Below, in pieces: positions 2,163 through 53,313 of a stretch of 64,000 nt of DNA. Position numbers and translations under genes: made by a program. The stretch covers positions 128,001 through 192,000 of the forward strand of contig JBHLQH010000001.1 in assembly GCA_048884965.1 (NCBI GenBank), given 5' to 3'. Position 1 is the first letter of the stretch; the number at the start of each line of letters is the position of its first letter. Under the pieces are notes generated by a model. It was not told where the DNA came from. It searched no databases and was given only the letters and a program-made list of their open reading frames with translations. The stretch comes from Candidatus Thorarchaeota archaeon (GTDB lineage Archaea > Asgardarchaeota > Thorarchaeia > Thorarchaeales > Thorarchaeaceae).

Positions 2163-2174
2163 TATGGATAGGAT

Positions 2175-2615: not shown

Positions 2616-2653
2616 CCCTAAGAAATAAGTGCTAGTACTGATATCTATAGGCT

Positions 2654-3322: not shown

Positions 3323-3380
3323 AGGATTGTGATGGGAAGACTTGCTTCTTCCTTAATCGAAGAGCTTACTAGCAAATGAT

Positions 3381-4223: not shown

Positions 4224-4407
4224 ATCTTAACTGAAACGAAATGAACTGGATACTCGAAGGAATATCCAGATATTTTCACAATTCAGTAAGGTTGCAATTA
4301 CTTCAACGATCTACTGGAAGTTAGATGTATTTCAGAAGCTCTACATTTCCGAGAAATCAAGACATATTCCCGTTAGCTCCTACTGGTAGAGGTTCGAGGC
4401 GTGTCAA

Positions 4408-5253: not shown

Positions 5254-5286
5254 ATGTCACATTCATTGGCACAGATAGAAAAAGAA

Positions 5287-5309
5287 GAGGAGTGATTACA
5301 GCACTCCTC
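5287..5309 (-). terminator. Hairpin terminator between convergent LLM and MFS genes
   Basis: GAGGAGTG-attacag-CACTCCTC 8-bp stem, followed on the minus strand by TTCTTTTTCT. Confidence 0.6.
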
Positions 5310-5324
5310 ATGCTACGAGAAGAA

Positions 5325-16952: not shown

Positions 16953-19900
16953 CTATGTTGCTTTTCTTTTGATTATTACAACTACCAATATCACTACAAT
17001 TCCTATTCCTGCAACGCCTATGGTCAACATCAACAGTCCCGAGAGAGGGTCATCAAAGATTGGTGGTGTCGTTGTATCAGTAGTTCCTGATGTTTCAGTT
17101 GGTTCAGTAGTTGTAGTTGTCGTAGTTGAAGTGGCTATCGAGTCATAGAATGCTATAGCAATATGCGGTTCATTCATGGTCACTTCAATCGAGTTAACTC
17201 CTATTTCGAGCTGAACAGCATCGAGCACCCAGTAGCTGAATTGATATCCCTCTACTGATTCCGCCGTCATTGTGACATTCGTGTTGATATCGAACCAGTT
17301 CCCTGATGGAGTGATAGTTGGTTGTGGTGTGATGTCATTGGGATTTGTATCGCATATCAGATTGAATTGAGTTACCCATATAGCCTGAGCCGTCTTAGGT
17401 CCATCAAGGAAGATACCTTCTGATTCAGCGTAGTCCGATCCCGAAGCGTCTTCTCTCCATTCATCAAATCGATACCTAGTGCCCGTATCACCAGTAACAA
17501 TTCCAGAGTCAAGACTTGCATAGACGGTGCTATTCTCGATATACCATCCTTGAGACAATGAAGTACTGTACTCAGTTTCGACCGTGAAGAAGAATTCTGT
17601 TACCCAAACGGCAGATGCCATCTTTGGTCCATCCATGATGATATCATCAGAAGAAGAATAGTCTGTACCGGTTGCATCATCTTTCCAGTTCTGAAAGACT
17701 ATACGTTCGCCTGTCTGCACATCAATAATATCCGTGTCCAGTACTGCATGAGCAGTATCTCCAGCCGTATACCATCCATCCCCAGAAACTGACCCGTAGT
17801 CCGATTGAATCGTAAGATAGTATTGGGTTTCCCATCTCGCGGTTGCTGTTTTCGGTCCATCCATGGTAATATCATCAGATGCAGCATAATCTGAGCCTGT
17901 GGCATCGCCAATCCACTCTATGAACTCGTATCGAACCCCGGTATCGCCAGCGATCAGATCTGTATCAATGCTGGCGCTTGCTAGAGTCCCTGCATCATAC
18001 CATCCATCTCCTCCGGGAGTGCCGTGGTCTGAAGAAACAGTGAGATAGTATTGCGTCTTCCAGTTTGCAATGGCAGTCTTTGGAGCATCCATGATGATGG
18101 ATGCAGATGAAGCATAGTTTGAGCCTGTAGTGTCACCAGACCAAGACTGGAAAATGTACTGAGTTCCTGTCCCTCCAGAGATTGATTCCTCGTCTATGGA
18201 TGAAGCCGCAGATGATCCATCATCATACCATCCTTGTCCTCCTGTCGTTCCGTGTTCGGAATTCACGGTCAGATAATACTGTGTCTTCCAATTTGCAGTT
18301 GCAGTCTTGGGACCATCCATGGTTATGCTATTTGAAATAGAGTAGTCAGATCCGGAAGCATCTCCACTCCACGAGGTGAACACATACTGTGTCCCAAGTG
18401 TGCCAGCAATGATACCTGCATCGATTGAGGCATGTGCTGTTGAGGCAGCATCATACCATCCTCCTCCTTCTGTAGTGCCATGATCTGAAGAAACAGAAAG
18501 GTAGTATTGAGTCTGCCAGTTCGCAGTTGCTGTCTTTGGACTGTTCATTGTAATTGAATCAGAGTATGAATAGTCTGAGCCCGTTGCATCACCTGACCAG
18601 GCCGAGAACAGATACTGGATGCCTGTTCCTCCCGATATGGTTTCCGAGTCTACAGATGCATGCGTTGTGGAATCAGCATCATACCAACCTCCTCCACTGG
18701 GTGTTCCATGGTCAGAACTGACAGTGAGATAGTACTGCGTCTTCCAATTGGCTGTTGCGGTCTTTGGACCATCCATAGTGATATCCTCTGATGAAGCATA
18801 ATTGGAACCAGATGCATCCTCAGTCCAAGATGTAAAGACATATTGGATTCCAGTACCGCCAGCTATGGTATCTGAGTCGACTGCCGCATTCGCGACAGCT
18901 CCTGAATCATACCAGCCTCCGCCACCAGTTGAACCATGATCTGAATTCACTGTAAGATAGAATTGCGTCTTCCAGTTGGCCGTTGCCGTCTTTGGTCCAT
19001 CCATGGTGATATCTTCAGAAGCAGCGTAATTAGACCCAGTAGCATCACCACTCCATGATGTGAAGACATACTGGATTCCTGTCCCTCCACTGATGATTTC
19101 TGAGTCAATTGATGCGACAGCAGTTGCTCCTGAATTATACCATCCATAACCAGCAGATGTCCCATGATCTGAGTCAATTGTGAGGTAGTATTGTGTAGTC
19201 CAAGAAGCTGTTGCAGTCTTGGCACTATCCATAGTGATTGAATTTGATGCAGCATAGTCCGAACCTGAGGCGTCCTCTCCCCATGAAGCAAAGACATATT
19301 GTATTCCTGTCGCTCCTGCTATTGTATCAGAATCAACTGAAGCGTACGCAGTAGACCCAGAATCATACCAACCTTCTCCACTAGGAGTTCCATGAGCAGA
19401 ACTAACAGTGAGATAGTATTGTGTTTTCCAACTTGCTGTTGCAGTCTTGGGGCTATTCATGGTTATTGAATCAGAGGATGAATAATCTGAACCACTAGCA
19501 TCTCCTGTCCATGAAGTGAACACATACTGCATTCCAGTTCCTCCTGAAACAATTCCCACGTTTACTGCAGCATATGCACTCGATCCACTGTCATACCAAC
19601 CTCCTCCACTAGTGGAGCCATGGTCCGAATCTACAGTCAGGAAATACTGCGTCTTCCATCCTGCAGTAGCTGTTTTAGTTCCATCCATCAATATTCCATT
19701 TGAAGATGAATAGTCCGACCCTGAAGCATCTCCTCCCCATGAAGTGAAGACATATTGTACTCCTGCTGCCCCTGGTACAATATTCGTATTCAATGATGCA
19801 TATGCGGTCGTTCCTGAATCATACCATCCTGTTCCCCCTGTAGTGCCGTATGTTGATGCTACCGTTAGATAATATTGCGTTGTTGAAAATAGATCGTAGC

Positions 19901-22565: not shown

Positions 22566-22664
22566 TGCACATACGTCTCCTCTAACCTCGGCTGAAAACC
22601 GCAATCAGGCTCTCTATTGATTACCCTATTAATTTTCGCTAATTGTAAGACAGCTTTGATTTGA

Positions 22665-38068: not shown

Positions 38069-38506
38069 CTATTTCTTCTTCGGAGTAGCAGCCTTCTTCT
38101 TCTCTTTTGGCTGAGACTTGGTTTTGGTTTCAGGTTTTGAGGATTTCTTGGCTTTGCTTTTTGGTTTTGGCTCAGACTTGCTCGCCTTCTTCTTTGGTTT
38201 CTCTTCCTTCTCATCAAAGAGAGCATCAACAGCGCCCAGAGCCCCTTTTGCTTCAGATTCCGTGAATACCTCTAAGTCGCCTGGTTTCGCAATCTGGATG
38301 GTGACAATAGCATTTTCTCCACAAGGTCGCATTTCCCATGACATCTCTACACCTGGTTGTTCTGATACGAACTGACCAAGCATTTGCATCCACGCATCCT
38401 TTACATCATCGATGTTGGTGTACAGGAATTCCATCAACGGGATAGATATTTCGACATTAAGGATTCGTCCATCAATGATGTGGTAATTTTCGATGTCCCA
38501 AGGCAA
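38069..38506 (-). CDS. Hypothetical protein with Lys-rich C-terminal tail
   Basis: ~100-aa globular part plus KEEKPKKKASKSEPKPKSKAKKSSKPETKTKSQPKEKKKAATPKKK. Confidence 0.7.
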   Translation of the reverse strand: MPWDIENYHIIDGRILNVEISIPLMEFLYTNIDDVKDAWMQMLGQFVSEQPGVEMSWEMRPCGENAIVTIQIAKPGDLEVFTESEAKGALGAVDALFDEKEEKPKKKASKSEPKPKSKAKKSSKPETKTKSQPKEKKKAATPKKK

Positions 38507-38568: not shown

Positions 38569-41500
38569 CTATTCTTCTCCATCCTCTTCTTTCTCTTTCT
38601 TCAGGAGAGATTCAACTTCTTTTAGGAACTCATCTCTAGGATCAGCATCCTCTGTTTCTGGTTCTTCTCCTACAATCTCTTCTGGTTTCGATTCACTATC
38701 GTCTTCTTCGGGAACAACGGGCTCTTCTTCTTCGCTCGTAGGTTCATCCAAGGGTTCAGACACTTCGTCATCATCTCCAGATACATCAGCAGGTTCCTCT
38801 ACAGCATCCACATCTGTGGTATCCTCGTGAGGTATTTCCTCTATTGGAGTTGGAGTGATTTGCATGTCCATATCTGAGCTTACAATACCCAGACCTTGCC
38901 GTTGCAAGAAGGTATGAATGCTTATTGGTTGGATGATTTCCTTCTCCTCAAGTCCAACTATAATATCAAGTATCTCTGCTTCTGTTTTTCCTAACATAGA
39001 TGAGAGTGGTTGGAGGTAGTCCTCAACGAGAAACTCTCTCTTGTTTCCAAGTGATGCTTGAATGTAATTGACTATCTTCTTCTCCGGTCCTGAGAGCTTC
39101 TTGTCAGGATGAAGTGTATGAGGTAGCATCCAGCTGTATCCCAAAGTGGAGATGAGATTGGAAACGATCCACTCTGGATCAAAGCAGTCCGTAATGCCGG
39201 TCCATCCATCGAGATGACTCTCATATTCATTCTCAAAAAGATCCACGAAGAATTGTAGTCTATCCCTCATGAGAACTGAGATTTCCTTATCAAGAATGAG
39301 GATACCAAGTACATATTCCCCACTGTAGCTATTGAGCCGCAGGCCTTGATATTGAATCTCCTCTAATGTGCCTTGCACACCGTCCCCTTTTATCTCTCCA
39401 TACACACTCGTTACCGCTGAGATGAACCCACTGATCAGGTCCGCCTGAATTCTTGCTTCTTTGAATGGATGATAGAACACACAAGTTCCTCTGTTTACGT
39501 ATACCGCCATGAAGTGCTGGACTGACTTGAGATCCTCAAAGTTCTTCAATTGCCTATCCAATGCTGCTCTACCAGCTCTCTTCTTTGGCTTAATCCTCTT
39601 GTTGTATCCAACTGATAGAATCGCCAATATCCCGATGCCAAGTAGCACATACCTTCCTTCCTCCACAAACCAGAATGACAAAACCTGTTCTATGGGGTCC
39701 AGATTAACTGGGATAGTATATGCTTTCGAAGCATCCCAATACACATAATCCTCGTTAATGCTTCCATCATAGAACACCTCGATAAGGATACTTGTCACCC
39801 GATTATCTGTAACCTGAGGGATGTCGAATGATACTGATGCCAGACCTTGAGCGTTTGTGCTATCTTGAACTGATACCAAAACACTTGTTCCATTATCATA
39901 ATTTACTGTGATATTGAATAGAAGTGTTCTGAGTTGAAGTGCTCTCTCAGTGTCATTCTCTCTGAGACGGGCATCAATGGAGATGGTGTTCCCTTGAAAT
40001 GCACTCCCTGAGAAACTTATACTGATGTAGACATAGGTCTTTGCTAGAACTCGGATGGAGATATCCTCAGTTGCGGGATTTGTACCATTTGCTAATGCTG
40101 AAATTGTTGCTGTATGGTAGTTTACTGTGAAATCAAGAACAAAGACTACGACATAATGTGACCCATTGAAGGTCATGGGGTATACTGTGCCCTCAATAGT
40201 TAGATTGACTGTTGCCCAATAGATAATCGTTCGATGGATATCATCAACAAATTCTACTGCAATCTCGATATCTTCAGTTTCATATTGACTATAAATTGGG
40301 CTGGTGACCACAATTTCTGTCGTCGCTCGAATTGTCAGATTAAGCTGAATTGAGGTTGTAACGAATCCGGTTTCTGTGAGTATTACTTGGATTTGATGTG
40401 TGCCCATGACTGCATCGGGGATAATAGCAACAGAATAGAGACCATTCCCGAGATGCGTCATAGTGAACTTAGAATCCAATAGCGTGACGGTCAGATTACT
40501 ATTCAAAATGGGATTGCCAAGGGAATCATGAGCTGAGACATTCAGCACTATGTTCGTTTCGTAGTCGGTGACCTCATGGTCAGACCACGAATCAGTGAGG
40601 ACTGGTACATCTTCCCATATGTCAAGGATGTTCTGAACACTTTTATTTCCATATCCGACTGCATCAGCAAAGACTGTGAATTCCCAGTAGCCGACACCAA
40701 TGTCACTACCTGGGAGGAGAGTATACCAAAGGCCATCAGATGAATTGTACTGCAAAGATATTGGAGTGGATACATTGAATTGAATTGTCAAGGTCGCAGC
40801 TGGAACAGGACTTCCTGAATAGGAATAGTTGGCAATAATCCTGAATGATTCAACATAGGTCATATCCTGATCTGATGGAGTGATTATGATCTCAAGTGAC
40901 GTGGCTGATTCCTCATATACATACAATTTCAGACTGCTATTGGCTTGAGATTCATGACCAAGCTTCCATGCATTCACTGTGAGATTGATCGTATCGGGAA
41001 AAGTTGAGAAATCAGTTCCATTGAATTGAATGGTGTAATTCTCAGCGACTGGATCCCATGTTAACGACCACGTCGAAGTTCCATCAGTGACATTTACTAT
41101 CGCATTTGCAATTGCAGTTCCATTGGCAAATCTATAGAGTATGGTGAGATTGGTACTCTGTAGATATGTTATGCCATTCTCTTGTGGATCCGTCCAATTG
41201 TATGTAAGGGCTAGTGTTTCATATGTTAATTCCACATCTATAGATAATGATTGATTCTCAATAGCGAAACCCTCTGCATATACAACAACTGAGTGTAACC
41301 CTGCGATCTCACCTGTTGTATCAATAACTGCTGTCCAAGTTCCATTTCCAAGGTCTGTTAATGATACATTGGATCCTGAATCATATGAATACACTACGCT
41401 TGCATATGTAGCAGTTAGAGGAGTTGGACTGAACGTATCCACAAAATCAACTCTAATCTCGAAGCTGCTGTCCGTGAAAGCTTCCATTTGGGTGTTACCG

Positions 41501-43113
41501 GTTAAGCTTGTTGGATAGTATACAAGAATTTCTTTTGTTAGGTAACCTGCTTCTGTGCCGTTCGTCCAGAACATCTCAAGAACGTAAGTGCCATTGGAAG
41601 AGACCCACGCATCAATATTCCAGAGATAGGAGAATCCCATAGCATAGGTTCGGTTTGGAGGATTATAGACCGCAGAGCCCTCGTATGTAGCTGTCAAATT
41701 CATAGATCCCGAATCAACGTCAGTGCCAATTCCATCCTCTACTATGGCCGTAATAGTGACTGTATCTTCAATACTTGCGATATCAGGCGATTGGATTTCT
41801 GTGATATAATTATCAGCTGTGTGTGATAAAGTCCATGTGCCATTCGTCATGCTTGAGCAAGTGACAGTTGTCCCTGAAACCGCATAGTTCCCATAGTTTG
41901 TGGAAGGTGTCGTACTATTGTACAATCCCGTGACTGACCAATCAAGAGGTCTTGTGAAGTTCATGTACCTGCTAATCGTTCCGCTTGTATTCGGGTATTG
42001 AATTGCTGCAGTGATATTCCATTCTATAGAATCGCCAGATGTCTGCACATCCCAAATTGTTGAAGCATCAAAGTTTCTCTTGTACCAAAGGGTGAGGTCA
42101 TATGTCATATCTATGGACTGATTTGTCTGAAAAGCAATTGAACTCAATCCTGCACCATTCAAAAATTCCCAAGAAGTTCCAGTAAGACCAGTTGAGTTAC
42201 CTAAAAGGGAAACCTCGTCAGCGCTGAAATATTTCAATGCGGCGTTGCTTGTTTGATTCCAAGGTGTGTACGTATAATTCAAGTTCGCTTCCCGACGATT
42301 TATTCCACTGTAAGGCCACCAAGCATCACCTCTTAGGTTATACAAAGTCTGAAGTCCCAAGAACGAATCGGTGGCTTCCCAATTTATCCGATTGAAATAC
42401 CATGTATCTACAATATATACTCCTGATAGCGCCGTTCCATCAATGACAACATAATATGTACTGCCGGAGGACAAGATTGCATTATCGCTAGAAACATCAT
42501 GAGTGTACAAAACAGCTGATGGATTTTGAGTGAATGGAGAAACCCAAGAAGTTTCATTTGTTGAACCATCAGAGTAGTCACTTCTGACGACCAACCATGC
42601 TTTTCCAAGAGAAGTAGTGTAATATGGCACTGCGTACTCTACAGTATAATTCTCCAGTCTTCCATCGTGGGGTTGATTGTAAAATGCTTGTGTAAGGGCA
42701 TCGGTAACCAGACCACTTGCATTTCGTATCATAATTGGTGTGGATGGATTAGGAGTTACACCTAATGACTCTCTTTCTGAAATAGCTGTCATATCGGTCA
42801 TGTCGATATCCGCTCTATAAAGCGTCCATCCAGAGATCACATATCCAGATAGATCTAAACTCCCCAGGTGTGTGAGATCTGAATATGAGTTTGATATTGT
42901 AGATGAGATGCCTGTTAGGACTCTAGACATATTTGCAGTAGCTTCAGTAGAGCTTCCCTGGCCTCCAGCTTGTGCAACTTGAAACAAAGCATCATTATCT
43001 ATTGAATCTAATGTAATTGCATTCATGATTCTGTCAGGTGATGATGTGATTGTAGGAATACATAGTATGACTAGGAACATTGCTGTTAGTGCAATAATAC
43101 GGTTTGACTTCAA
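38569..43113 (-). CDS. Giant single-pass surface protein: beta-rich head, short Ig-like stalk, TM helix, cytoplasmic longin-like domain, wHTH-like domain and acidic tail
   Basis: Signal peptide, many N-X-S/T sequons, TM helix YVLLGIGILAILSVGY, then ...GTCVFYHPF...DLISGFISAVTS...LEEIQY...G.YV.GILI.. (longin-like) and an E/D-rich C-terminus. Confidence 0.85.
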   Translation of the reverse strand: MKSNRIIALTAMFLVILCIPTITSSPDRIMNAITLDSIDNDALFQVAQAGGQGSSTEATANMSRVLTGISSTISNSYSDLTHLGSLDLSGYVISGWTLYRADIDMTDMTAISERESLGVTPNPSTPIMIRNASGLVTDALTQAFYNQPHDGRLENYTVEYAVPYYTTSLGKAWLVVRSDYSDGSTNETSWVSPFTQNPSAVLYTHDVSSDNAILSSGSTYYVVIDGTALSGVYIVDTWYFNRINWEATDSFLGLQTLYNLRGDAWWPYSGINRREANLNYTYTPWNQTSNAALKYFSADEVSLLGNSTGLTGTSWEFLNGAGLSSIAFQTNQSIDMTYDLTLWYKRNFDASTIWDVQTSGDSIEWNITAAIQYPNTSGTISRYMNFTRPLDWSVTGLYNSTTPSTNYGNYAVSGTTVTCSSMTNGTWTLSHTADNYITEIQSPDIASIEDTVTITAIVEDGIGTDVDSGSMNLTATYEGSAVYNPPNRTYAMGFSYLWNIDAWVSSNGTYVLEMFWTNGTEAGYLTKEILVYYPTSLTGNTQMEAFTDSSFEIRVDFVDTFSPTPLTATYASVVYSYDSGSNVSLTDLGNGTWTAVIDTTGEIAGLHSVVVYAEGFAIENQSLSIDVELTYETLALTYNWTDPQENGITYLQSTNLTILYRFANGTAIANAIVNVTDGTSTWSLTWDPVAENYTIQFNGTDFSTFPDTINLTVNAWKLGHESQANSSLKLYVYEESATSLEIIITPSDQDMTYVESFRIIANYSYSGSPVPAATLTIQFNVSTPISLQYNSSDGLWYTLLPGSDIGVGYWEFTVFADAVGYGNKSVQNILDIWEDVPVLTDSWSDHEVTDYETNIVLNVSAHDSLGNPILNSNLTVTLLDSKFTMTHLGNGLYSVAIIPDAVMGTHQIQVILTETGFVTTSIQLNLTIRATTEIVVTSPIYSQYETEDIEIAVEFVDDIHRTIIYWATVNLTIEGTVYPMTFNGSHYVVVFVLDFTVNYHTATISALANGTNPATEDISIRVLAKTYVYISISFSGSAFQGNTISIDARLRENDTERALQLRTLLFNITVNYDNGTSVLVSVQDSTNAQGLASVSFDIPQVTDNRVTSILIEVFYDGSINEDYVYWDASKAYTIPVNLDPIEQVLSFWFVEEGRYVLLGIGILAILSVGYNKRIKPKKRAGRAALDRQLKNFEDLKSVQHFMAVYVNRGTCVFYHPFKEARIQADLISGFISAVTSVYGEIKGDGVQGTLEEIQYQGLRLNSYSGEYVLGILILDKEISVLMRDRLQFFVDLFENEYESHLDGWTGITDCFDPEWIVSNLISTLGYSWMLPHTLHPDKKLSGPEKKIVNYIQASLGNKREFLVEDYLQPLSSMLGKTEAEILDIIVGLEEKEIIQPISIHTFLQRQGLGIVSSDMDMQITPTPIEEIPHEDTTDVDAVEEPADVSGDDDEVSEPLDEPTSEEEEPVVPEEDDSESKPEEIVGEEPETEDADPRDEFLKEVESLLKKEKEEDGEE

Positions 43114-43323
43114 TCTTCATCGCCTCACTGTCTTCCCCTTTTGAGATTGGAGCCATAACCAGCTTTCTGGTTCCTGAAGCTCAATCAAGGGTACTAGATG
43201 ATGCTGGTGGCATGTGTTATCACAAATGTCACATGGGTCCTAGAAACATGACGATTAGTGCTTATTTATAGCTATCCTGAACTAACTGCTTCGAAAAATA
43301 GATGACCATTTCATAATAGAAAG

Positions 43324-46300
43324 TCAATCTATAGTATCTGTATATCCAATCTTCCGAATCCTGCCTTCTCGTATCTCTACAACATCCACATTGTCGTTCA
43401 ATAGGTCATTTACTAGCTTTCGTGTTTTTGAAATGCTGAGATTAAGTTCTACAGATATTTCCTCTCGTGACAAAGGTTTGCCTGCTTCTTTAAGCAGACG
43501 AATTAGTTTGGATCCATCGTCGACCACCTCTTTTCCTTGAGGAGTTTCTCTAACAAATAGAGAAACAGTTGTCGAGATTCCTGCAGCAGCGAGAAATGCA
43601 CTTGTTGATGATTCATCGATTCCTGATATTTCATCTATTTCTCTCAGTGAATCAATTACATCTGGAATCAGTAATTCATTTTCTTTCGATATTTGGTATA
43701 CTGATTGAGCGATGTCCGGAGCATGTGAAATGGCTGGACCCGGTGTGAGCGAAGTCATATCGGTTCTGGAAGACAATCCCTCAACTCTCCTTCTTTTTCT
43801 TAGCAAGACTGCAGCAATGCCTACTGCTGCAACTCCTCCAACTGCTAGTGTGACTGTTAATGGTCCTGTAAGTGGAGTTGTGGGTTCAGGCGTGATTTGA
43901 ATGACACTGATTACAGTTGTCGATGATTCAACTGGCCATGCACTGATTTCTCCAGCAAAGATCGCTCTTACGAATATTTCATTACTATCCATTGGTACTG
44001 TGTAGCTAATAGTTATCCTTCCATCAGAACCTGTGGATAACATGAATCTCTCCTCTATTTCTGAGCCATTCAAGAACGCAATTCCGAGAATTATCTCTAT
44101 GACCTTATCCGATATTGGTTGCGAGTTATAGGTCAAAGAAGCGGAAATTGAAATCGCAGAGTCTTCTTCCGCCGCATCTGGATGTGACAGTGCAATTTCG
44201 TAAGCCATCTTTTCAAGGACTGTCAATGTTATGTTAAAATCTGAGACATCGAAGTCGCTAGCAATCGCCTGCAAGAATATCTGATATATGCCTGGAAGTA
44301 GATTCTCTGGCAATTCAAACTCTATTCGATACAGTTCCAAGACGGAATCAAACATCATCTGATATTCGTTTTCCTCAAACGTGAAAGAGAGAGATGCCCA
44401 TGTGACATTTGTGTCATGATATGCATCAACGAGAAATGCTGTGATAAGAAGAGATTCTTGTTCGTATTGGCTAATGCTCTGATCAGACACGATATTCAGT
44501 GGGAGGAGGTCGACCTGAATCTGTTGGATATAACCCATTGCTATGTATCCTTCTTTTGATAGATGAACCTCGATCGAATAGTTGCCAGCAGACAATGCTG
44601 TGCTGCTTACGAGAATTGAGTATACATTGTTAGCTAAGAGCTCGATTTCATATTCACCTTGCCATGATACTTGAATCGCAACATCATCTATGTTCTCATT
44701 AGTCCGAAGATCTCTATATTGAAGACGAAGTTCCAAAGTGTCATTCACATACAACCAGTCACTCCCTATGCTTACCAAAGTGGTTGGTATCAGATGAATA
44801 AACACATCGAATTGATAGAATTGTGAATCGAATCCTTCAGAACTTAGGTTAACTGTACATGAGTAATATCCAGCATCATGAATCAATCCAGGAATAGTAA
44901 AGGTCCAGTTGGTCATATCCCATGTTGCTAGAATTTCTGTTTGGTTGAGTTGGATGTACACGATTGTGTTGGGAATTGATGAACCATTAAGCATCTCATA
45001 GGATATCGATCCATTCACGAACCCATCAGCGTATATCGTCGTATTCGTATGGATCACACTGAAGGCGGTTGACGTAGCTATTACATCCAATGTGAGGAGT
45101 GATTCTATTGTATTGAACCAGCTTCCAGTAATTGATACATTCACTACATAGGTGCCAATAGATAGTTGGGGTCCAATTATTGTGGTGTAAATGCCTTGGC
45201 CTTCATTGAGTACAACAAGCATAAATGAGTTTAGAGATATTGTCACTGTGGCATCTGTAACAGGGTTTCCAGCTGATGAGTTGCATTCAATGCTTAGAGC
45301 TGCAGTTGATATATAGTCAATCGTCGACTCCGTCCAGTTTGAGGTGAATTGCAGAGTGTCCCTATAGACGGTAATTATCTTCCATTCGTTTCCTTCTTGC
45401 TGTCCCGTTCGATTTGCCCTTATTGTGGCGTTCCAAGTGCCCAAAGAGATGTCAAATCCTGAAAGAGTAATGTGCCACATCTGATCGGTGCTGCTATATT
45501 CCAAGGGGTAGGGTGAAGAACTATTCAAGACCAAGGTCACGGTCGCATCAAGTATGGGCTGGAAATCGCTTGTGTATATCACGGATATATTGAGCTCAGT
45601 GATGATATTCACATTTCCATCTGATGGTTCCCAGTAGACCAAGAATGAGTTGGATGCTAATGTCACATTAACATTGTATGTCGTGTTGGTGAACACTCCG
45701 AAACCATATTGCCATGCACTGATATAGGCTTCATAGACTCCTATTCCTATTTGTCGACCTAGAATAGAGATTTTCCAAGAACCCAGTGAATATGTCAGAT
45801 TATAGACAATGCTGTTAATGGTAACATTCACCGTTGCTGTATCTGGCACATCTCCATATGACGACAAGTAATCTACGGTGAGATTCAATAGATCCGTGTA
45901 TTCTATTGTGACATTCGATGGTTCCCATGTAAGAGATGATATAGCTGTTGAAACTACTGCAACAGTTACTATTGTTGTGTTCTCTTGGTACTCGTAACCA
46001 TACACCCAAGTTCTGATGAGAATCGCATGTGGTCCTAGATCAAGCATCACACCACTGAGGTTTGCAATCCAATAGTTGCCAGATGTATTGAGACCAATGG
46101 TATACCAGCCATCAATTGTGATATTTGCTGTCACAATCGTTTTACTAACATCTCTGAATGCATTGTCATCCCAGTATTGTGCTGTGAGATTTGCTTGTCC
46201 TAAGTAGTCGATTTCGACTGAATCCCATGTGACAAAGAGTGACGTAGGCACTTCTGTAATATTGTAGTGGAATCCATCTTTGAATGCGTAGTCGTAGCCT

Positions 46301-49300
46301 ACCTTGCTCACATTTACAGTCACTACATGATAGCCCAAACCCGTTTCATAACCGAGCTGAATCCAATAGTATCCAGATGCTTCATTCATTGAATAGATTG
46401 TGCCATTCACAGTTACGGTTTTTTGAGAGGCTCCAGGAATGAATGTTCCCATAGAATCTCGATAATAGACTCGCAACACCTCAGTTTGAGTGTAGTAGAA
46501 TGTTGAATTCGAATCTGTTCCTGCTCTCTGCCACCATATTGAAACACTTGTTCCTTCATTTATGATCGCAAATACTGTACTAATCTCCACATTAGTGTAG
46601 ACCGGTCCAGATGCCTTCACTACAGGTAGAAAACTACCCAGACCTGGGGGATTGTCGGTACCATTTAGTACGAGCTCGTACCCTCCGCTTGTTTGATTCC
46701 AATTCAAGTCAAATGTAAACCCTGCAATCGTTATGTTAAGAGAACCATCAGAAATAGAAGTTCCATTACTCATCCTATAGAAAACAACTATCTTGGTTTG
46801 CTCGATATACGTGATCGTGTTCCCTTGTGGCCATGTCACTTCTAGAGAGGATGGATCTTTTCTTACGATTAATGTCTCATCGGAATCAGATTGAGATTGA
46901 TAGCCATATGCATCCGCCTGGATGAATAACGCATGTTCTCCAAATCCTGGAGGTGTATCTGTGCCATTAATGATGAGCTCAAATCGTTCGCTAGTTCCAT
47001 TCCATAATAGATTCCAAGTAGTAAACCCGATCGTTACATTAACGGTTGCGAATGGAATGTTTGAACCATTGCTCATTTGGTAAATCACTTGGATGGCTGT
47101 GAATTGGAAATAGCTGATATTATTCAGATAGGGCGTTATCCACGAAGCACTGAGAGAGGTGCCTTCATTTGTGATTGATAGAACCATCGAGGTGTCTTGG
47201 ACGTAGTCAAATCCATCTCTCCATGCCTTTATTGTTAGGCTGTGAACACCTAGTCCTGGTTGATTATCGCTTCCATTGAATTGGATACGATAAGTTTCAG
47301 AAGCATCATCCCATATCAGATTCCAAGTTGTAGTATCTATCGTCACATTCACTATAGCAAGAGGTATTGCAGTTCCATTACTCATTGTATAATTAGCTGA
47401 TAGTATTGTAGATTCAACAAAGGTTATGGTTCCCCCACCAATCCACTGACTCTCTATCTGACCTAATTCACCAGTTATCACAAGATTTTCTGTGCTGTCT
47501 ACATGTGATTGATATCCAAATCTCCATGCTCGGATGGTAAGTCCATGAGTTCCAAGACCAGGTGGCACATCTGTTCCATTGAACTGAATTCGATAGGTAT
47601 CAGAGTCCTCATCCCATTGAAGTGTCCAAGTACCAGTTCCAATAGTTACATTCAGTTTCGCACTAAGAACAGCACTACCATTTGTCAAGGTGTAGTTGAC
47701 AGAGAGAATTGTCGATTCAACATATGTAATCGAATTCCCCGGAATCCAATCGATGGTCATCGCTGTACCCTCGACAGTAATTGATAGGACCTCTGTCGAA
47801 TTAACTTGAGTTTGATAGTTTGCTTTCCAAGCAGAGATGAGAATATTGTGTATGCCAAGTCCGGGTAAAGCATCTGTACCATTGAAAGATATCTCGTAAT
47901 ATTCAGTAGATGGATTCCATATCAAAGACCAAGTCGTGGAGTCAATCGTGACATTGATGGTTGCTTCAAGGATTGAAGTTCCATTTCTCAAATAGTACCC
48001 AATTTGCAATGTTGTAGTTTCAAGATATGATATTGAGGAGTCAGCATCCCACCCAATAGTTAGGTCTGCATCTTCGACACGTATTGTCAACTCCTGAGTA
48101 GCATCAATCACTGAGATATAACCGAATTTCGAACTCTTTATGGTGAGGGGGAATGTCCCAAACCCTGGAAATGAATCGCTTCCATTGAATTGAATCTCAT
48201 AGCTTTCTGAGGTTGAATTCCAAAACATGGATAATGTAGTTGTATCGATTGTCACATTGACTATCGCATCAACAATTGGAGTCCCATTACTCATTTGATA
48301 CACAAGCACCAATGTTGTAGATTCTAGATAGGATATGTTATTGCCAAATACTATGTTCCAGTTCAGTGAATAGATGATCTCCTCTTGTCTAAGTGTCAAT
48401 TCCTGTGCGCTATTCGTGAATGACACATATCCGAACTTCTCAGCTTTGATTATCATTGAATGCGTACCAAGACCTGGTGGAGTATCCGTTCCATTGAATA
48501 TTAGACGATAATCAAGATTTGACGCATCCCATCTTAGGATCCATGTGGTTCCGCTAATAGTAGCATTAACGACTGCATTTGGAATCTCTGTGCCATTGCT
48601 CATGAGATAATCGATAATCAGAGTAGTGTGCTGCACATAGGTTATGTTATCTGTAGCTGACCAATTAATCGTATAACTAGTATCTTCCTTACTCACTGTC
48701 AGTGTTTCAGTATCATCAACCCAACTCTGGAAGTCCACCTTTGAGGCTCTGATATCTAGGCTGTACGAATCGATTCCTGGTGGATCATCATAACCATTGA
48801 AAACGACCTCATAGATCTTTGACACACCGTTCCACTGTAGAGTCCAAGTCGTGACTCCAAAAGTCACATTCACAGTTGCTTGCTCAATTACAGTACCATT
48901 GAACATGGTATAGTTTACGATCAGTTTGGTTGATTCGACATAGGATATAGAATCTCCATTTGTCCATGAAATGTCGAATAGGGTTGGAATTACTGGAAGT
49001 GTCAATGTTTGAGTTGTATCAACTTGTTCCTCATATCCGAATACCCAGCAACTTACCGAAAGACTATGCGTTCCCACGCCTGGAGGTACATCGGATCCAT
49101 TGAATGTTATTTCAAAGTACCCCGACGTTGAGTTCCATATCAAGAGCCAGGTCATACTATCGATTGTTACATTGACCTCTGCATTTGCAATTGGAGTAAG
49201 GTCAGACTTCGTATAGCCCACCAGCAATGTTGTGGAATCTAAGTAACTAGGACTGTTTGTGTTCGTCCATTGAACAGAGAATAGGGTTGGTTCAATTCTT

Positions 49301-52300
49301 AGTGTGACATCATAGGTGTTATTCGTTTGATGGATGTAGCCATACTTGCCAGCTTTCACCAGAACATTGAATGTGCCAAACCCAGGAGGTGAATCTGATC
49401 CATTTAATCGCAACCTGTAATTCTGATTATCGGAATCCCACCACAGATTCCAGACATTCGAGTTGATTGTGACGTTAACTTCTGCGCCAATGATTGCAGT
49501 TCCATTGCTCATAAGATAGGTGGCAACTATTGTCGAATAATCAGTGTACGTGATGTCATTATCAGGTAGGAGTACAATTGTAAGGGTTGTGTCCTCAGGG
49601 TTTATCGTTAATGTGCTTCCATCTGTTCTATCGATATATCCATACTTGCCTGCTTTAATTGTAATCGAGTGGGTTCCAAATGATGGCGGATTGTCTGTGC
49701 CATTGAATGTAATGACGTATGTGGATGTAGACTGATTCCAGACCAATAACCAGGTATCGCCATTGATTGTAGCATTAAGATTAGCATCCACAATCGCAGA
49801 GCCATTACTCATGGTGTAGCTCACGTTTAGAATTGTATACCCAACATAGCTTATCGTGTTCGTGGATATCCACTCGAAAGCTAGAGATGTGAACTCCTCC
49901 CTGAGAATTAGATTTTCTGTATTATTCTCTCTGCTTTCATATCCAAGCAAATCAGCTTTCACAATTATTGAATGTGTTCCAAAGTCTGGTGGTGCATCTG
50001 TCCCATTGAATTGGATCTCGTAGTATCCTGTACCAAAATTGTAGCTTAAATCCCAAGTAGTAAGACCTATAGTAACATTTACTTCAGCGGTATCGATTGT
50101 ACCACCTGAGGTCAATGAGTAGTTAACCTGAAGGATAGTGTACTCAACGTAACTGATGTTATTCCCATTTGACCACTGAAATGAGAGAATTGTTGGCTCC
50201 TCTCGTATAGTGATGGTCTTAGAACTATCAGCTTGACTTTCGTAGCCATATCTATCTGCATTGATATTGACTGTGAATATTCCAAGACCAGGTGGCACAT
50301 CTGACCCATTTATCCTGATTCTGTAGTCCTCGTTTGCAGGGCTCCAAGTAAGATTCCATGTGGAAGTTCCCAAAGTGACATTAATGATTGCACCCAATAT
50401 CGCAGAGTCATTACTCATCAAATAATCACAGATTATTGTGGAATATTCTGTGAATGTAACATCATTATCAGGTTCAATTACCACAACTATTGAGGTTCCT
50501 TCTAGGTCTATTGATAGAGTTTCGGTGTTATTCATTCTGTCAACATAACCAAATTTGTCAGCGAGAATTGTAATTCCATGTGTCCCAAATCCTGGGAATA
50601 GGTCATCACCGTTGAACTGATATCTGTAAGTCTTGGACCCTGATTCCCAGTCAAGAGATAATGTTGTGGTGTCTATTGTAAAATTCAATGTGGCTCCTTC
50701 AATGGCAGTCCCATTGCTCATTGTATAATTTACAATCAAAGTCGTGTATTGAACATAGGTTATGGAATTCGTGTTTCCCCACTGAACAGTAAGTGAAGTG
50801 TCTTCTTCAGAAACAGTAAGGATTTGGCTACTATCGTATTGGGATTCATACCCATATTTGGATATAGCAATCTCAACTAAATGAACACCAAAGCTTAGCT
50901 GTGGTGAACTTCCGATAAATGTGCAATTGTACGTTTTACTATCTGAATCATATACAAGGTCGTATGTGTATCCGTTTATCGTTACATTCGCGATAGCATC
51001 AACAATTGAAGTACCATTTGACATCAAATACGATATCGATAAAGTTGTACTTTCAACATAAGAAATGCCATTGCCTGATGTCCATTGGATATTAATCGTT
51101 GTTGATTCTTTCCTGATCGTGATACTCTCAGAATCATCATATTGATTTTGATATCCAACCTTCCAAGCTTGAATGGTGATTGAATGAGTACCAAAACCTG
51201 GATCTGAATCTGTTCCATTGAATCTCATTTTATATGTTTCATCAACTGGGTCCCATCTGAGCTTCCAAGTTGTGGTGTCAATTGTCACATTCAACTGAGC
51301 ATCAGATACATTTTCTCCTGATGTTCTTTGGTAAAGCACGGACAATTCTGTGTATTCTACATAAGTAATATTGTCAGAATTCGACCACCAAATGTCAAGG
51401 GGTAAAGTTTCATGTATTAGAGACACATGTATTTCCAATGATTGATTCTCTAATGCGAAACCCTCCGCATATACATCTACGATATAATCACCTGGAGCTT
51501 TACCTGTGGTACTAATGCTCGCTGTCCATGTGCCATTTGCGAGATCACTCATAGTAGCATTTGATGCTCCATCAAACGAGTATTGTACTGTTCCCAGACT
51601 ACCATTGATGCCCTTGGGTGTGAAGATTTCTTCGTAATCTACCCTAATCGCAAAACTGCTTTCCGTATAGGCATTGATTGCATATGACGTAGCTGTGAAG
51701 GTTGTTGAATGAAATACTGCGAGTTCTTGAGTCAGATACCCTGAAGATGAACCATTTGTCCAAAATGCCTCTATTCTATAGATTCCGTTCTCACTTATTG
51801 TGGAAGGTATATTCCAACTATAGCTTGTTCCTCCTGACGAAACCGATTCATTTGCTGGAGCGAATATGATTGTGGAGTCTTTCCAAACTGTAAGATTGGT
51901 AGTTCCACTCAGAACAGGACTACTGCTCTCCTCTGAAAGTGTCAAATTGATCTCCAAGATGACCTCACTGTTAACCTCATAGGTAATCGGGGAATCATCA
52001 CTAGAATCATAGCTGGATATATCCGAAAGATGATTGAACGAAGTAGAAACGAGCGTCCATGTGTCATTATTCACAAACGATGCTGCTACTATATTCTGAG
52101 AAACTAAATAGTATGAATGATTCGATGATGGCATCGACGAATTATACATCCCAGTTGGCTTCCATGTACTTGGAATCGTGAAATTCAAGTATCGCATATC
52201 CGATGATTTGGGATACTCTGGGGTGGCTGTAAGATTCCAATTGACCATGTTTCCTGAATTTTGAACTTCCCATTGAGCCGACCCTTTCATATCCTGCTTA

Positions 52301-53313
52301 TACCAGAGCGTGATAGAATAATCGATTTGAACAGATTGATTGCTTTGGAATGAAATAGATGTGATGTTACTGCTGTCACTAAATGTCCAGGAATCTCCCG
52401 TTAACGAAGATGAGTTAGCTGTAAGAGAAACTGATTCTGGAATGGAATAGACCAAAGCTGAGTTGGAGGTTTGGTTCCAAGGTGTATAAGCATATTGCAG
52501 GAACGCTTCTTGTCTTTCTGCACCAACATATGGATACCAAGTGCTATCATCTCGCAATCGATAGCCAGTATCATCTCCCAATACGGATGATGAGGACCGC
52601 CAATAGAGCTGAGGGAATCCTCCATAGTTAATGAGTCCTGTACCATCTATTACAACATAATATGGAGTAGACTCAGACAAAATGCTATTGTCCGATGAAC
52701 AATCATGGGTAGTAGTTGTGTCAAATATTGTCTGAGTGAAAGGAGTAGAATAGCTTGTTTGATTTGTACTGGGATCGGTGAAATCGCTCCGAACAACAAG
52801 GTAGGTTTGACCAGCACCAGAGGGAAGATATGGCGCAATATAGATTAGTGTATAATTCTCGAGTCTTCCATCATGAGGTTGGTTGTAGAACTCTTGGTAA
52901 AGTGCATCAACAGTCAAACCGGAGCTATTCCTGATTTGCATATAGCTATTCGGAGTGATTCCTGTTGATTCCCGTTCGGGAACTGCTGTGATGAGAGATG
53001 GTTCTACATCCGCTTTATACAGACACCATCCAGACAGTAAGTAGCTTGACAGATCTATCTCTCCGAGATGCTGGCTTGTGCTAGAATACGAATTTTGAAC
53101 ATTGAGGTCTAGTCCATCTATTACCCTCGATGCATAGATACTCACATCCTGTTCATCACCAGCTCCACTCACATAGCTAAGTACTGAATTTCTGCTTTCA
53201 GTTAGAGTCTGTTCTCTCATATCGGTTACTTTCTCGAGGGGAAGAATACTCAGCGATGGAATTGGCACTGCAAGTACTATTCCAACGATTAGGATAACGA
53301 GAACTCTCTTCAT
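43324..53313 (-). CDS. Giant (3329 aa) single-pass surface protein: same head as 38569-43113, ~25 Ig-like modules, TM helix and cytoplasmic winged-helix domain
   Basis: Signal peptide; shared head motifs FYNQPHDGRLENYT and YTPWNQTSN.AL; repeat stalk; TM helix VTLAVGGVAAVGIAAVLL-RKRRR; C-terminal LIRLLKEAGKPLSREEISVELNLSISKTRKLVNDL. Confidence 0.88.
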   Translation of the reverse strand: MKRVLVILIVGIVLAVPIPSLSILPLEKVTDMREQTLTESRNSVLSYVSGAGDEQDVSIYASRVIDGLDLNVQNSYSSTSQHLGEIDLSSYLLSGWCLYKADVEPSLITAVPERESTGITPNSYMQIRNSSGLTVDALYQEFYNQPHDGRLENYTLIYIAPYLPSGAGQTYLVVRSDFTDPSTNQTSYSTPFTQTIFDTTTTHDCSSDNSILSESTPYYVVIDGTGLINYGGFPQLYWRSSSSVLGDDTGYRLRDDSTWYPYVGAERQEAFLQYAYTPWNQTSNSALVYSIPESVSLTANSSSLTGDSWTFSDSSNITSISFQSNQSVQIDYSITLWYKQDMKGSAQWEVQNSGNMVNWNLTATPEYPKSSDMRYLNFTIPSTWKPTGMYNSSMPSSNHSYYLVSQNIVAASFVNNDTWTLVSTSFNHLSDISSYDSSDDSPITYEVNSEVILEINLTLSEESSSPVLSGTTNLTVWKDSTIIFAPANESVSSGGTSYSWNIPSTISENGIYRIEAFWTNGSSSGYLTQELAVFHSTTFTATSYAINAYTESSFAIRVDYEEIFTPKGINGSLGTVQYSFDGASNATMSDLANGTWTASISTTGKAPGDYIVDVYAEGFALENQSLEIHVSLIHETLPLDIWWSNSDNITYVEYTELSVLYQRTSGENVSDAQLNVTIDTTTWKLRWDPVDETYKMRFNGTDSDPGFGTHSITIQAWKVGYQNQYDDSESITIRKESTTINIQWTSGNGISYVESTTLSISYLMSNGTSIVDAIANVTINGYTYDLVYDSDSKTYNCTFIGSSPQLSFGVHLVEIAISKYGYESQYDSSQILTVSEEDTSLTVQWGNTNSITYVQYTTLIVNYTMSNGTAIEGATLNFTIDTTTLSLDWESGSKTYRYQFNGDDLFPGFGTHGITILADKFGYVDRMNNTETLSIDLEGTSIVVVIEPDNDVTFTEYSTIICDYLMSNDSAILGAIINVTLGTSTWNLTWSPANEDYRIRINGSDVPPGLGIFTVNINADRYGYESQADSSKTITIREEPTILSFQWSNGNNISYVEYTILQVNYSLTSGGTIDTAEVNVTIGLTTWDLSYNFGTGYYEIQFNGTDAPPDFGTHSIIVKADLLGYESRENNTENLILREEFTSLAFEWISTNTISYVGYTILNVSYTMSNGSAIVDANLNATINGDTWLLVWNQSTSTYVITFNGTDNPPSFGTHSITIKAGKYGYIDRTDGSTLTINPEDTTLTIVLLPDNDITYTDYSTIVATYLMSNGTAIIGAEVNVTINSNVWNLWWDSDNQNYRLRLNGSDSPPGFGTFNVLVKAGKYGYIHQTNNTYDVTLRIEPTLFSVQWTNTNSPSYLDSTTLLVGYTKSDLTPIANAEVNVTIDSMTWLLIWNSTSGYFEITFNGSDVPPGVGTHSLSVSCWVFGYEEQVDTTQTLTLPVIPTLFDISWTNGDSISYVESTKLIVNYTMFNGTVIEQATVNVTFGVTTWTLQWNGVSKIYEVVFNGYDDPPGIDSYSLDIRASKVDFQSWVDDTETLTVSKEDTSYTINWSATDNITYVQHTTLIIDYLMSNGTEIPNAVVNATISGTTWILRWDASNLDYRLIFNGTDTPPGLGTHSMIIKAEKFGYVSFTNSAQELTLRQEEIIYSLNWNIVFGNNISYLESTTLVLVYQMSNGTPIVDAIVNVTIDTTTLSMFWNSTSESYEIQFNGSDSFPGFGTFPLTIKSSKFGYISVIDATQELTIRVEDADLTIGWDADSSISYLETTTLQIGYYLRNGTSILEATINVTIDSTTWSLIWNPSTEYYEISFNGTDALPGLGIHNILISAWKANYQTQVNSTEVLSITVEGTAMTIDWIPGNSITYVESTILSVNYTLTNGSAVLSAKLNVTIGTGTWTLQWDEDSDTYRIQFNGTDVPPGLGTHGLTIRAWRFGYQSHVDSTENLVITGELGQIESQWIGGGTITFVESTILSANYTMSNGTAIPLAIVNVTIDTTTWNLIWDDASETYRIQFNGSDNQPGLGVHSLTIKAWRDGFDYVQDTSMVLSITNEGTSLSASWITPYLNNISYFQFTAIQVIYQMSNGSNIPFATVNVTIGFTTWNLLWNGTSERFELIINGTDTPPGFGEHALFIQADAYGYQSQSDSDETLIVRKDPSSLEVTWPQGNTITYIEQTKIVVFYRMSNGTSISDGSLNITIAGFTFDLNWNQTSGGYELVLNGTDNPPGLGSFLPVVKASGPVYTNVEISTVFAIINEGTSVSIWWQRAGTDSNSTFYYTQTEVLRVYYRDSMGTFIPGASQKTVTVNGTIYSMNEASGYYWIQLGYETGLGYHVVTVNVSKVGYDYAFKDGFHYNITEVPTSLFVTWDSVEIDYLGQANLTAQYWDDNAFRDVSKTIVTANITIDGWYTIGLNTSGNYWIANLSGVMLDLGPHAILIRTWVYGYEYQENTTIVTVAVVSTAISSLTWEPSNVTIEYTDLLNLTVDYLSSYGDVPDTATVNVTINSIVYNLTYSLGSWKISILGRQIGIGVYEAYISAWQYGFGVFTNTTYNVNVTLASNSFLVYWEPSDGNVNIITELNISVIYTSDFQPILDATVTLVLNSSSPYPLEYSSTDQMWHITLSGFDISLGTWNATIRANRTGQQEGNEWKIITVYRDTLQFTSNWTESTIDYISTAALSIECNSSAGNPVTDATVTISLNSFMLVVLNEGQGIYTTIIGPQLSIGTYVVNVSITGSWFNTIESLLTLDVIATSTAFSVIHTNTTIYADGFVNGSISYEMLNGSSIPNTIVYIQLNQTEILATWDMTNWTFTIPGLIHDAGYYSCTVNLSSEGFDSQFYQFDVFIHLIPTTLVSIGSDWLYVNDTLELRLQYRDLRTNENIDDVAIQVSWQGEYEIELLANNVYSILVSSTALSAGNYSIEVHLSKEGYIAMGYIQQIQVDLLPLNIVSDQSISQYEQESLLITAFLVDAYHDTNVTWASLSFTFEENEYQMMFDSVLELYRIEFELPENLLPGIYQIFLQAIASDFDVSDFNITLTVLEKMAYEIALSHPDAAEEDSAISISASLTYNSQPISDKVIEIILGIAFLNGSEIEERFMLSTGSDGRITISYTVPMDSNEIFVRAIFAGEISAWPVESSTTVISVIQITPEPTTPLTGPLTVTLAVGGVAAVGIAAVLLRKRRRVEGLSSRTDMTSLTPGPAISHAPDIAQSVYQISKENELLIPDVIDSLREIDEISGIDESSTSAFLAAAGISTTVSLFVRETPQGKEVVDDGSKLIRLLKEAGKPLSREEISVELNLSISKTRKLVNDLLNDNVDVVEIREGRIRKIGYTDTID
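46560..51411 (-). repeat. 16 tandem ~101-aa (~303-nt) Ig-like repeats, followed by ~9 more diverged modules
   Basis: Consensus E.T.L.I.W...N.I(T/S)Y.E.T.L.V.Y.MSNGT.I..A.VNVTI..TTW.L.W......Y.I.FNG.D.PPG.G.H.I.I.A.K.GY, counted in the translation. Boundaries approximate. Confidence 0.9.

Follow-up and report, generated by a model that had tools for sequence, protein, structure and literature searches.

Longin domains are platforms for small GTPases, adaptors and coats, and in the longin SNAREs (VAMP7, Sec22 and Ykt6) the longin domain lies at the N terminus, followed by a SNARE motif and a C-terminal anchor. Bacterial giant immunoglobulin (Ig)-repeat adhesins and invasin/intimin rods (Big_1, Invasin_D3, Bap, SraP) are built from ~100-residue beta-sandwich modules that end in a distal binding head, and are anchored by the cell wall, the outer membrane or a secretion system. 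ToxR and CadC join a C-terminal periplasmic sensor, by a single membrane pass, to an N-terminal OmpR-type winged helix in the cytoplasm. Metazoan cadherins, Ig-CAMs, Eph receptors and integrin alpha share a logic of modular ectodomain, one transmembrane helix and adaptor-binding tail. Here, we describe two adjacent genes, L and S, on the minus strand of a 64,000-nt stretch of DNA from Candidatus Thorarchaeota archaeon (the window; that is, the whole stretch that was analysed). The products of L and S are single-pass type I surface proteins, heavily N-glycosylated and conserved as a pair in Thorarchaeia, one with a long stalk and one with a short stalk. The cytoplasmic tail of S is predicted to consist of a longin domain followed by a winged-helix-like unit, and this module recurs under many other Asgard ectodomains. 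The architecture is new, is built from known folds, and is broad and conserved enough to matter for Asgard cell biology.

L and S are co-oriented, with 210 nt between them, and BLASTP aligns them at 39% identity over 966 residues (E = 0). An earlier note, made from the letters of the window, had described them as collinear paralogs with a homologous N-terminal region, 16 Ig-like repeats in L where S has one, and corresponding modules near the membrane, and all of this agrees with our analysis. Both open reading frames (ORFs) are as that note described them. S starts at a TTG, and its database form, from an ATG 11 codons downstream, has 1503 residues. The N-terminal regions, which we refer to as heads, are 47-48% identical over ~600 residues (46% in a global alignment), and every motif quoted in the earlier note is present in both translations. 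A search seeded with a single repeat found 16 strong copies of ~101 residues in L (residues 637-2253) and ~7 weaker copies up to residue ~3020, compared with one strong copy (residues 636-732) and a few weak copies in S. Closer to the membrane, residues 742-933 of S match residues 2559-2749 of L (76 bits), and residues 764-1116 of S match residues 2774-3120 of L (45 bits), with about twice as many membrane-proximal modules in L as in S. The rod of ~100-residue Ig-like modules has ~25 units in L and ~5 in S, and the whole ectodomain, in round numbers, ~31 and ~11-12 units, respectively. The heights of ~100 nm and ~30 nm that the earlier note had estimated, at ~4 nm per module, would be fair as orders of magnitude, and no more than that. 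The stalk modules have no Pfam match at E <= 1 in searches with whole L and S, and the Pfam and NCBIfam matches of the whole proteins are all sub-threshold; homologs have faint or sub-threshold matches to Invasin_D3, CarboxypepD_reg and MG4.

Each protein has a hydrophobic, signal-like N-terminal segment and one further transmembrane helix (residues 3150-3172 in L and 1153-1171 in S), followed by a basic stop-transfer sequence. NxS/T sequons are in 2.4-fold excess (120 versus 49 expected in L; 41 versus 17 expected in S), with three conserved sequons in each L repeat, and all but one of the sequons in the two proteins lie before the transmembrane helix. The distribution of sequons, together with the pattern of signal segment and transmembrane helix, indicates that L and S have their N termini outside and their C termini inside the cell, which places the C-terminal domains in the cytoplasm, as the earlier note had supposed. 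Like the bacterial adhesins, L and S are rods that carry a distal head, and repeat number differs among relatives in both groups; unlike them, L and S are archaeal, are anchored by a type I transmembrane helix, are dense in N-glycosylation sequons and have a conserved, folded cytoplasmic module.

The head is specific to genomes of the Thorarchaeota type. It occurs in 66 database proteins, nearly all of them named Thorarchaeota, and in 44 of the 61 sampled genomes of the class, including 22 of the 24 high-quality genomes, at one to three copies per genome. The proteins fall into short (~1475-1550 residues), mid (~1590-2170 residues) and long (~2700-3370 residues) forms, with 1-3 strong repeats in the short forms and 10-21 in the long forms. 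The mid form is the sole copy in many genomes. A long gene followed by a short gene on the same strand is found in six genomes (G023, G042, G027, G011, G018 and G020) and on the contig that encodes database protein P0022, and partial pairs lie at contig ends in two more (G028 and G001). The flanking order is CN_hydrolase, DUF2299, [long], short, an ORF of ~100 residues, LarA and VTT, and in a genome with a single copy, one gene of 1877 residues occupies exactly the position of L and S. Repeat counts vary among relatives, as the earlier note had anticipated, and the two stalk lengths that it had singled out are a conserved, bimodal feature.

We considered whether a mis-assembled repeat array or mis-called ORFs could account for the long form, since the source genome is a metagenome-assembled genome (MAG) with 7.2% contamination. 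The 16 repeats of L are merely 29-55% identical to one another (mean 41%), Tandem Repeats Finder detected no repeat in the DNA of the locus, and many independent assemblies contain proteins of this architecture and these sizes; seven other genomes encode long forms of 2900-3371 residues with 10-21 strong repeats. An artefact is therefore extremely improbable, in line with the earlier note, which had called one unlikely because the copies are diverged.

The tail of S is at least as conserved as the head: its 46 homologs are 43-65% identical, with 35 invariant columns. An AF2 model based on these homologs has a pLDDT of 79 overall and >90 in the folded core. In the numbering of the tail model, a helix directly after the membrane (residues 4-24) leads into a beta-beta-alpha-beta-beta-beta-alpha-alpha domain at residues 26-152 (DSSP: E26-33, E39-44, H52-69, E79-83, E86-92, E96-102, H108-124, H141-152), which is the longin topology, with the C-terminal helices on the sheet. 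Residues 170-224 form a helix-strand-helix-helix-strand unit (pLDDT 96-98), residues 241-316 are acidic and predicted to be disordered (pLDDT <50), and residues 320-341 (window 38575-38640, minus strand) form a final helix with the motif F..DVE.LL (pLDDT 82-89), in which F324 and V328 are at least 90% conserved. By analogy with helical peptides that bind Roadblock/longin dimers, this terminal helix may fold back on the longin domain. A prediction of a two-copy complex of tail residues 1-240 scored 0.01, which speaks neither for nor against dimerisation.

Structural searches support a longin fold for the modelled tail. Foldseek matched Fuzzy, AP sigma, zeta-COP, Sec22b, VAMP7, TRAPP subunits, Asgard Roadblocks and MglB (E 5e-5 to 3e-3; longins, 5e-5 to 1e-3). 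In a VIA search of 48,161 chains the top match was Fuzzy (7q3d_C, Z 12.7), accompanied by the longin domain of a Lokiarchaeal Roadblock-Longin protein (8yqg_B, Z 12.4), sedlin (Z 11.7) and synbindin, VAMP7, Sec22, AP mu/sigma and SRX (Z 10.7-11.7). Longins cover residues 25-156 at Z 10-12.7, with a root-mean-square deviation (rmsd) of ~3 A over 115-136 residues, whereas Roadblock, MglB and LAMTOR chains cover only residues 21-130, at Z 8.4-10.2. Because longins rank above Roadblocks over a longer span, the term "longin-like" is supported at the level of predicted fold. The unit that follows is winged-helix-like, with weak matches to NirdL-like_HTH (Lrp-type) in 15 of the 46 tails (best E 2e-4) and a Trans_reg_C match in only one of the 46 (E 0.051). 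The earlier note's description of the S tail as longin-like, winged-helix-like and acidic is thus consistent with the model. No curated longin family in Pfam or NCBIfam matches the tail at E <= 0.1, and comparison of the tail profile with PDB sequences gave nothing meaningful. As a separate observation, H28, C39, H43 and C138 of the tail (window ~39172-39504, minus strand) are invariant or nearly so in the 46 tethered homologs, and not all are found in the soluble paralogs described below; they could possibly form a metal site or a redox switch.

Although the fold is shared with eukaryotic and Asgard longins (the Fuzzy/Mon1-Ccz1 tri-longin guanine nucleotide exchange factors, sedlin/TRAPP, VAMP7/Sec22, AP sigma/mu, SRX and 8yqg), the setting is different. 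The S longin domain sits directly under the transmembrane helix, on the C-terminal side of a giant ectodomain, and is followed by the winged-helix-like unit, with no SNARE motif, GTPase or DENN domain attached. Its order of ectodomain, transmembrane helix and longin domain differs from that of the longin SNAREs, and we found neither a SNARE heptad region nor a Pfam synaptobrevin match in the tail. NPRL2-like proteins, which are frequent in Thorarchaeota, resemble the S tail in that a longin domain precedes a small C-terminal domain. However, GATOR1 chains are not the best structural matches of the tail (8fw5_C, Z 9.4, longin part only), and the Pfam profiles NPR2 (PF06218) and NPR3 (PF03666) have no match in the source genome at E <= 10.

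An exhaustive HMMER search with residues 1170-1430 of S retrieved 498 cluster representatives at E <= 1e-3, 144 of them at E <= 1e-10. We examined the best 137 representatives outside the first matches of the head family (P0069 and later), 119 of which have at least 40 residues upstream of the module; in 110 of these 119, a transmembrane helix ends no more than 25 residues before the module begins. Sequon density in the module relatives is 4.2 per 100 residues before the transmembrane helix and 0.43 after it. In the tier of matches below about 1e-22 there is no Thor head, and the module instead lies under other ectodomains, such as one with Big_3_5 in a Helarchaeial protein. An integrin-like layout is seen in P0111 (Hodarchaeota/Promethearchaeota, 1143 residues), where FG-GAP repeats (an integrin-alpha-like propeller) and Big_1 precede the transmembrane helix and the longin-winged-helix module. 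The named members are all Asgard archaea (Thor, Loki, Hod, Hel, Sigyn and Ran), and the Loki members include proteins of the cultured Lokiarchaeum ossiferum (WP_371805894.1, 2640 residues) and "Harpocratesius repetitus" (3025 residues). The nearest structure clusters in the ESM Atlas are unnamed and contain only Promethearchaeota, and no Pfam or NCBIfam model covers the module. The earlier note had suggested looking for domain shuffling, with this head joined to other cytoplasmic domains. Shuffling is present, but in the opposite sense, in that one cytoplasmic module is combined with many ectodomains; the head itself was seen only with the L-type and S-type tails, the latter being on every complete short or mid form.

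The source genome also encodes two soluble paralogs of the module, of 348 residues (L016:1501-2547, plus strand, contig C6; E 3e-68) and 215 residues (L017:1435-2082, minus strand, contig C1; E 8e-19). Both begin exactly at the juxtamembrane helix and have no transmembrane segment, and they are candidates for partners, or free forms, of the tethered module; four weaker longin matches are found in the same genome. Most Thor MAGs have been reported to encode NPRL2-like proteins with a longin plus a C-terminal domain (Liu et al., bioRxiv 10.1101/2020.10.19.343400), a set that may include these soluble paralogs; the word "transmembrane" is absent from the text of that study. A structural survey lists longin homologs for Loki and Odin, not for Thor (Tran et al., PMC10933270). 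In the full-text literature, which does not extend to subscription journals, we found no account of a longin module that is tethered to the membrane beneath giant surface proteins.

The 156-residue tail of L ends in a winged helix, as the earlier note had recognised. The tail scores 21.7 bits against HTH_IclR (cut-off 22; E 1.7e-4), and also matches HTH_24, DUF7343 and TFIIE_beta; across the eight long tails, HTH_24 is matched in five (best E 1.3e-5) and MarR_2 in three. The L tail combines an H-H-H-wing pattern with profile matches for an HTH_24/MarR/IclR-like winged helix, and shares the motif GLTRAE(L/I)S..L..S.SK....VK.LL.SD..F.EVR.G.KR.I with the long orthologs of seven other genomes. The same note had held that the tails of L and S diverge completely, and this we reject. 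A search with residues 3140-3329 of L (length class 1830-5826) found no homolog at E <= 1e-3, and hhalign gave no signal when the L tail alone was compared with the S-tail profile; relatives of the L tail were instead taken from the genome loci. The G028 long protein has, after the transmembrane helix, an unmistakable longin-like domain (phmmer E 4.8e-7 against the S tail) and an L-type winged helix. In G020, the longin-like region of the long protein has diverged, and an S-type and then an L-type winged helix come after it. When these intermediates are included in the L-tail alignment, hhalign aligns it to the S-tail profile with 94.5% probability (E 7.5e-8, 164 columns), with the winged-helix units in register. 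The two intermediates and the profile match indicate that the L and S tails are divergent versions of one ancestral module. There is strong support, at the level of sequence comparison, for the L tail being a reduced longin-winged-helix module that has lost the longin part and retained a basic winged helix. Separately, the long ortholog in G011 (L006:642-9620, plus strand) ends nine residues after the transmembrane helix (RRRWKKSSS), leaving no cytoplasmic tail; either a genuine truncation or a frameshift from sequencing could account for this.

The winged helix of L invites the suggestion that L is a membrane-tethered transcription factor, binding DNA at the membrane or after proteolytic release, with S working separately. 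Consistent with this idea, the matched winged-helix families are of DNA-binding types (HTH_24, MarR_2 and IclR), the recognition helix begins with a conserved S-x-S-K, the wing (R-x-G-x-K-R) is basic, L-type winged helices have an isoelectric point (pI) of 8.3-10 and a net charge of +1 to +5, and the transmembrane helix is rich in Gly and Ala. On the other hand, the Pfam scores are all at or below cut-off, the net charge in the source genome is just +1, the homologous position in S is occupied by a non-basic winged-helix-like unit, and the long ortholog in G011 has no tail at all. Moreover, winged helices often dock proteins rather than DNA, as in ESCRT-II and cullins. We consider this account quite improbable. 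L resembles ToxR and CadC in joining an extracytoplasmic part to a cytoplasmic winged helix by a single pass, but its order is reversed, and its winged helix is C-terminal and of the predicted HTH_24/MarR-like kind.

For the head, an AF2 model of residues 30-640 of S (58 homologs, pLDDT 90) is an all-beta array. Foldseek with the whole head returned generic multi-sandwich proteins at TM-scores of 0.13-0.2: the lambda gpJ tail tip, Bap, SraP, complement/alpha-2-macroglobulin, Eph ectodomains and an archaeal S-layer. The fold matches to S-layer proteins (8c8l and 8qox) are likewise generic. VIA was more specific for parts of the model. Residues 48-256 match the lectin-like domain of Cwp84 (Z 11.6, rmsd 3.1 over 146 residues), as well as a PBCV-1 capsid protein and a Bxb1 tail-tip protein (Z ~11), and, beyond a middle domain at residues ~285-400, two Ig/MG/PKD-like domains occupy residues 405-504 and 505-603 (Z 9.5-11.3, rmsd 2.1-3). 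An ESM Atlas feature search with the head was uninformative (best score 0.75). A binding function for the predicted lectin/jelly-roll-like tip is plausible.

Trees of different parts of these proteins conflict. The head tree, which has 78 rows, places the long and short heads of one lineage next to each other as sisters in at least four cases (support of 99 for G011/G018, 100 for G020, 98 for G027 and 93 for the main group). The ~1500-residue short forms are one clade in a tree built on the final 300 residues of the ectodomain (23 short forms and two unclassed rows; SH-aLRT 100), with the long forms together on the other side, and the tail tree has the same large short clade (support 99; most short forms) with the same subgroups. 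Constraining the head tree to contain this short clade lowers the log-likelihood by 553 units (p-AU 4.6e-47). Heads of L and S within a genome are 45-56% identical, whereas orthologs of distant lineages are 35-42% identical. This conflict between the head tree and the trees of the C-terminal half points to head exchange between the paralogs. One old split would have given rise to the long and short forms, after which the head-coding 5' part would have been repeatedly exchanged between neighbours, or across lineages, keeping the heads of a cell alike. Three considerations count against exchange, or restrict its timing: the short clade used in the AU test was named after the trees were seen; all the genomes are MAGs, which may include chimeric contigs; and the L and S heads of the source genome are old paralogs, with a third-codon identity of 0.37, so any exchange here is ancient. 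We looked for recent gene conversion in the source genome and rejected it, given this third-codon identity and the lack of a high-identity tract.

The repeated sister pairs in the head tree would also arise if long/short pairs had formed by independent duplication in each lineage, with no need of head exchange. We regard this as improbable, since the short forms share both a membrane-proximal clade (100) and a tail clade (99), and the long forms share a derived tail that lacks the longin part and keeps a specific winged-helix motif. Independent duplication would further require contraction to ~1500 residues and expansion to ~3000 residues to have occurred in parallel, repeatedly.

As to function, we think it moderately probable that L and S are adhesion or sensing receptors coupled to a longin platform. 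A conserved, folded module right under the membrane, combined with many ectodomains and matching or exceeding them in conservation, looks like a shared adaptor or output domain of receptor families. L and S would differ in how far above the membrane they hold a head of the same kind. The earlier note had envisaged a ligand-binding head coupled to transcription or to small-GTPase machinery, and these would be candidate functions. The membrane-held longin domain of S would act as a docking platform, with a small GTPase, a Roadblock or longin partner, or a soluble longin-winged-helix paralog as its partner; the source genome has 36 Ras-like and 13 Roadblock genes that are candidates. The winged helix of L would bind nucleic acid at the membrane or serve as another protein-docking unit. 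Several points speak against a receptor function: the L/S locus has no linked GTPase or Roadblock gene; Pfam and NCBIfam reveal no enzymatic or classical signalling domain in the tail; the winged-helix-like unit of S is neutral to acidic (median pI 6.3), which makes DNA binding by S unlikely; and a giant glycosylated protein made of Ig repeats can have a purely structural role. The parallel with metazoan adhesion receptors is one of analogy only, as there is no homology beyond common beta-sandwich folds and the cytoplasmic module of L and S is unrelated to theirs.

The chief alternative, credible though in our view unlikely, is that L and S form a passive glycoprotein canopy (a glycocalyx or S-layer substitute) with two envelope heights, and that the tail does no more than anchor, sort or position the proteins, for example to protrusions or the cytoskeleton, and transmits no signal. 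The excess of sequons and their conservation in each repeat, the rod of Ig-like modules, the S-layer proteins and adhesins among the fold matches (8c8l, 8qox, SraP and Bap) and the lack of a catalytic output domain would all suit such a coat, and eukaryotic longins also sort, with VAMP7/Sec22 and the sigma/mu subunits of adaptors ranking high in the fold matches of the S tail. A coat fits less well with a cytoplasmic module whose conservation, with 35 invariant columns, equals or exceeds that of the ectodomain, and that is reused under many unrelated Asgard ectodomains, a pattern typical of a shared adaptor or output domain. One to three head copies per genome are also few for a bulk coat, although this is a measure of gene number and not of abundance. 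Extending the receptor reading, we tentatively propose, though we think it rather unlikely, an Asgard family of single-pass receptors whose tethered longin-winged-helix output recruits a Ras-superfamily GTPase, and which in Thorarchaeia displays one head specificity at two heights, matched by recombination between the tandem genes.

If this proposal is true, the Asgard family would be a prokaryotic precursor to the coupling of receptors to GTPases and of cargo to coats. Among the "eukaryotic signature" parts of Asgard genomes, longin domains, Roadblocks and small GTPases stand out, and what they target in cells that lack organelles is an open question; a longin domain that giant glycosylated surface proteins keep at the inner side of the membrane would provide a concrete, testable site of action, on the cytoplasmic face beneath surface adhesins or receptors. 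The module is common to Thor, Loki, Hel, Hod, Sigyn and other Asgard lineages and has escaped Pfam and NCBIfam, and the Lokiarchaeum ossiferum protein offers an entry point in a cultured organism. The long/short pair with matched heads is a natural experiment on the use of stalk length at the cell surface, and may show how relatives of the ancestors of eukaryotes wired surface to interior. Coordinates of the features of the locus are listed in Table 1.

Table 1. Features of the L/S locus and its immediate neighbours, in window coordinates.
Feature	Position	Strand	Basis
Gene L, 3329 residues, type I surface protein with long stalk	43324..53313	-	ORF and translation; paralog of S
L signal peptide/N-terminal hydrophobic segment, residues 1-27	53233..53313	-	Hydropathy peak
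L head, residues 32-636, all-beta	51406..53220	-	47-48% identity to S head
L, 16 clean ~101-residue Ig-like repeats, residues 637-2253	46555..51405	-	phmmer, hidden Markov model, repeat alignment
L, ~9 diverged membrane-proximal modules, residues 2254-3147	43873..46554	-	Weak repeat matches; corresponds to S 742-1116
L transmembrane helix and RKRRR stop-transfer, residues 3148-3173	43795..43872	-	Hydropathy, sequence
L C-terminal basic winged helix (predicted), residues 3265-3325	43339..43521	-	Pfam matches; motif in 8 long-protein tails
Gene S, 1514 residues, TTG start	38569..43113	-	ORF and translation
S head, residues 30-635: predicted lectin/jelly-roll-like tip, beta-sandwich, two Ig/MG-like domains	41209..43026	-	AF2, VIA
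S single clean 101-residue repeat, residues 636-732	40918..41208	-	Repeat search
S, ~4 diverged membrane-proximal modules, residues 733-1150	39664..40917	-	Repeat matches, L/S correspondence
S transmembrane helix, residues 1153-1171, then KRIKPKKR	39601..39657	-	Hydropathy, sequence
S juxtamembrane helix, residues 1176-1196, and predicted longin domain, residues 1197-1328	39130..39588	-	AF2, Foldseek, VIA
S winged-helix-like unit, residues 1332-1407	38893..39120	-	AF2 pattern; NirdL-like_HTH matches
S acidic disordered linker, residues 1413-1488, and conserved terminal helix, residues 1492-1513	38575..38877	-	pLDDT, conservation
Upstream neighbour of L, DUF2299 protein, 171 residues	53426..53941	-	Pfam E 3.5e-11
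Downstream neighbour of S, small soluble protein with ~100-residue core	38069..38506	-	63% identity to same-position ORFs in L012, L014

The DUF2299 gene lies after the CN_hydrolase gene, a position that is kept in both of the other genomes checked, and its product may be a member of the L/S unit. The small protein downstream of S has no match in Pfam or NCBIfam; its Lys/Pro/Ser-rich tail of 45 residues is present only here, and is lacking from the counterparts in L012 and L014, which come from two other genera. Elsewhere in the window (16953-22604, minus strand), an 1883-residue giant secreted or surface protein combines an M6 (immune inhibitor A) peptidase domain with a divergent InlB B-repeat.

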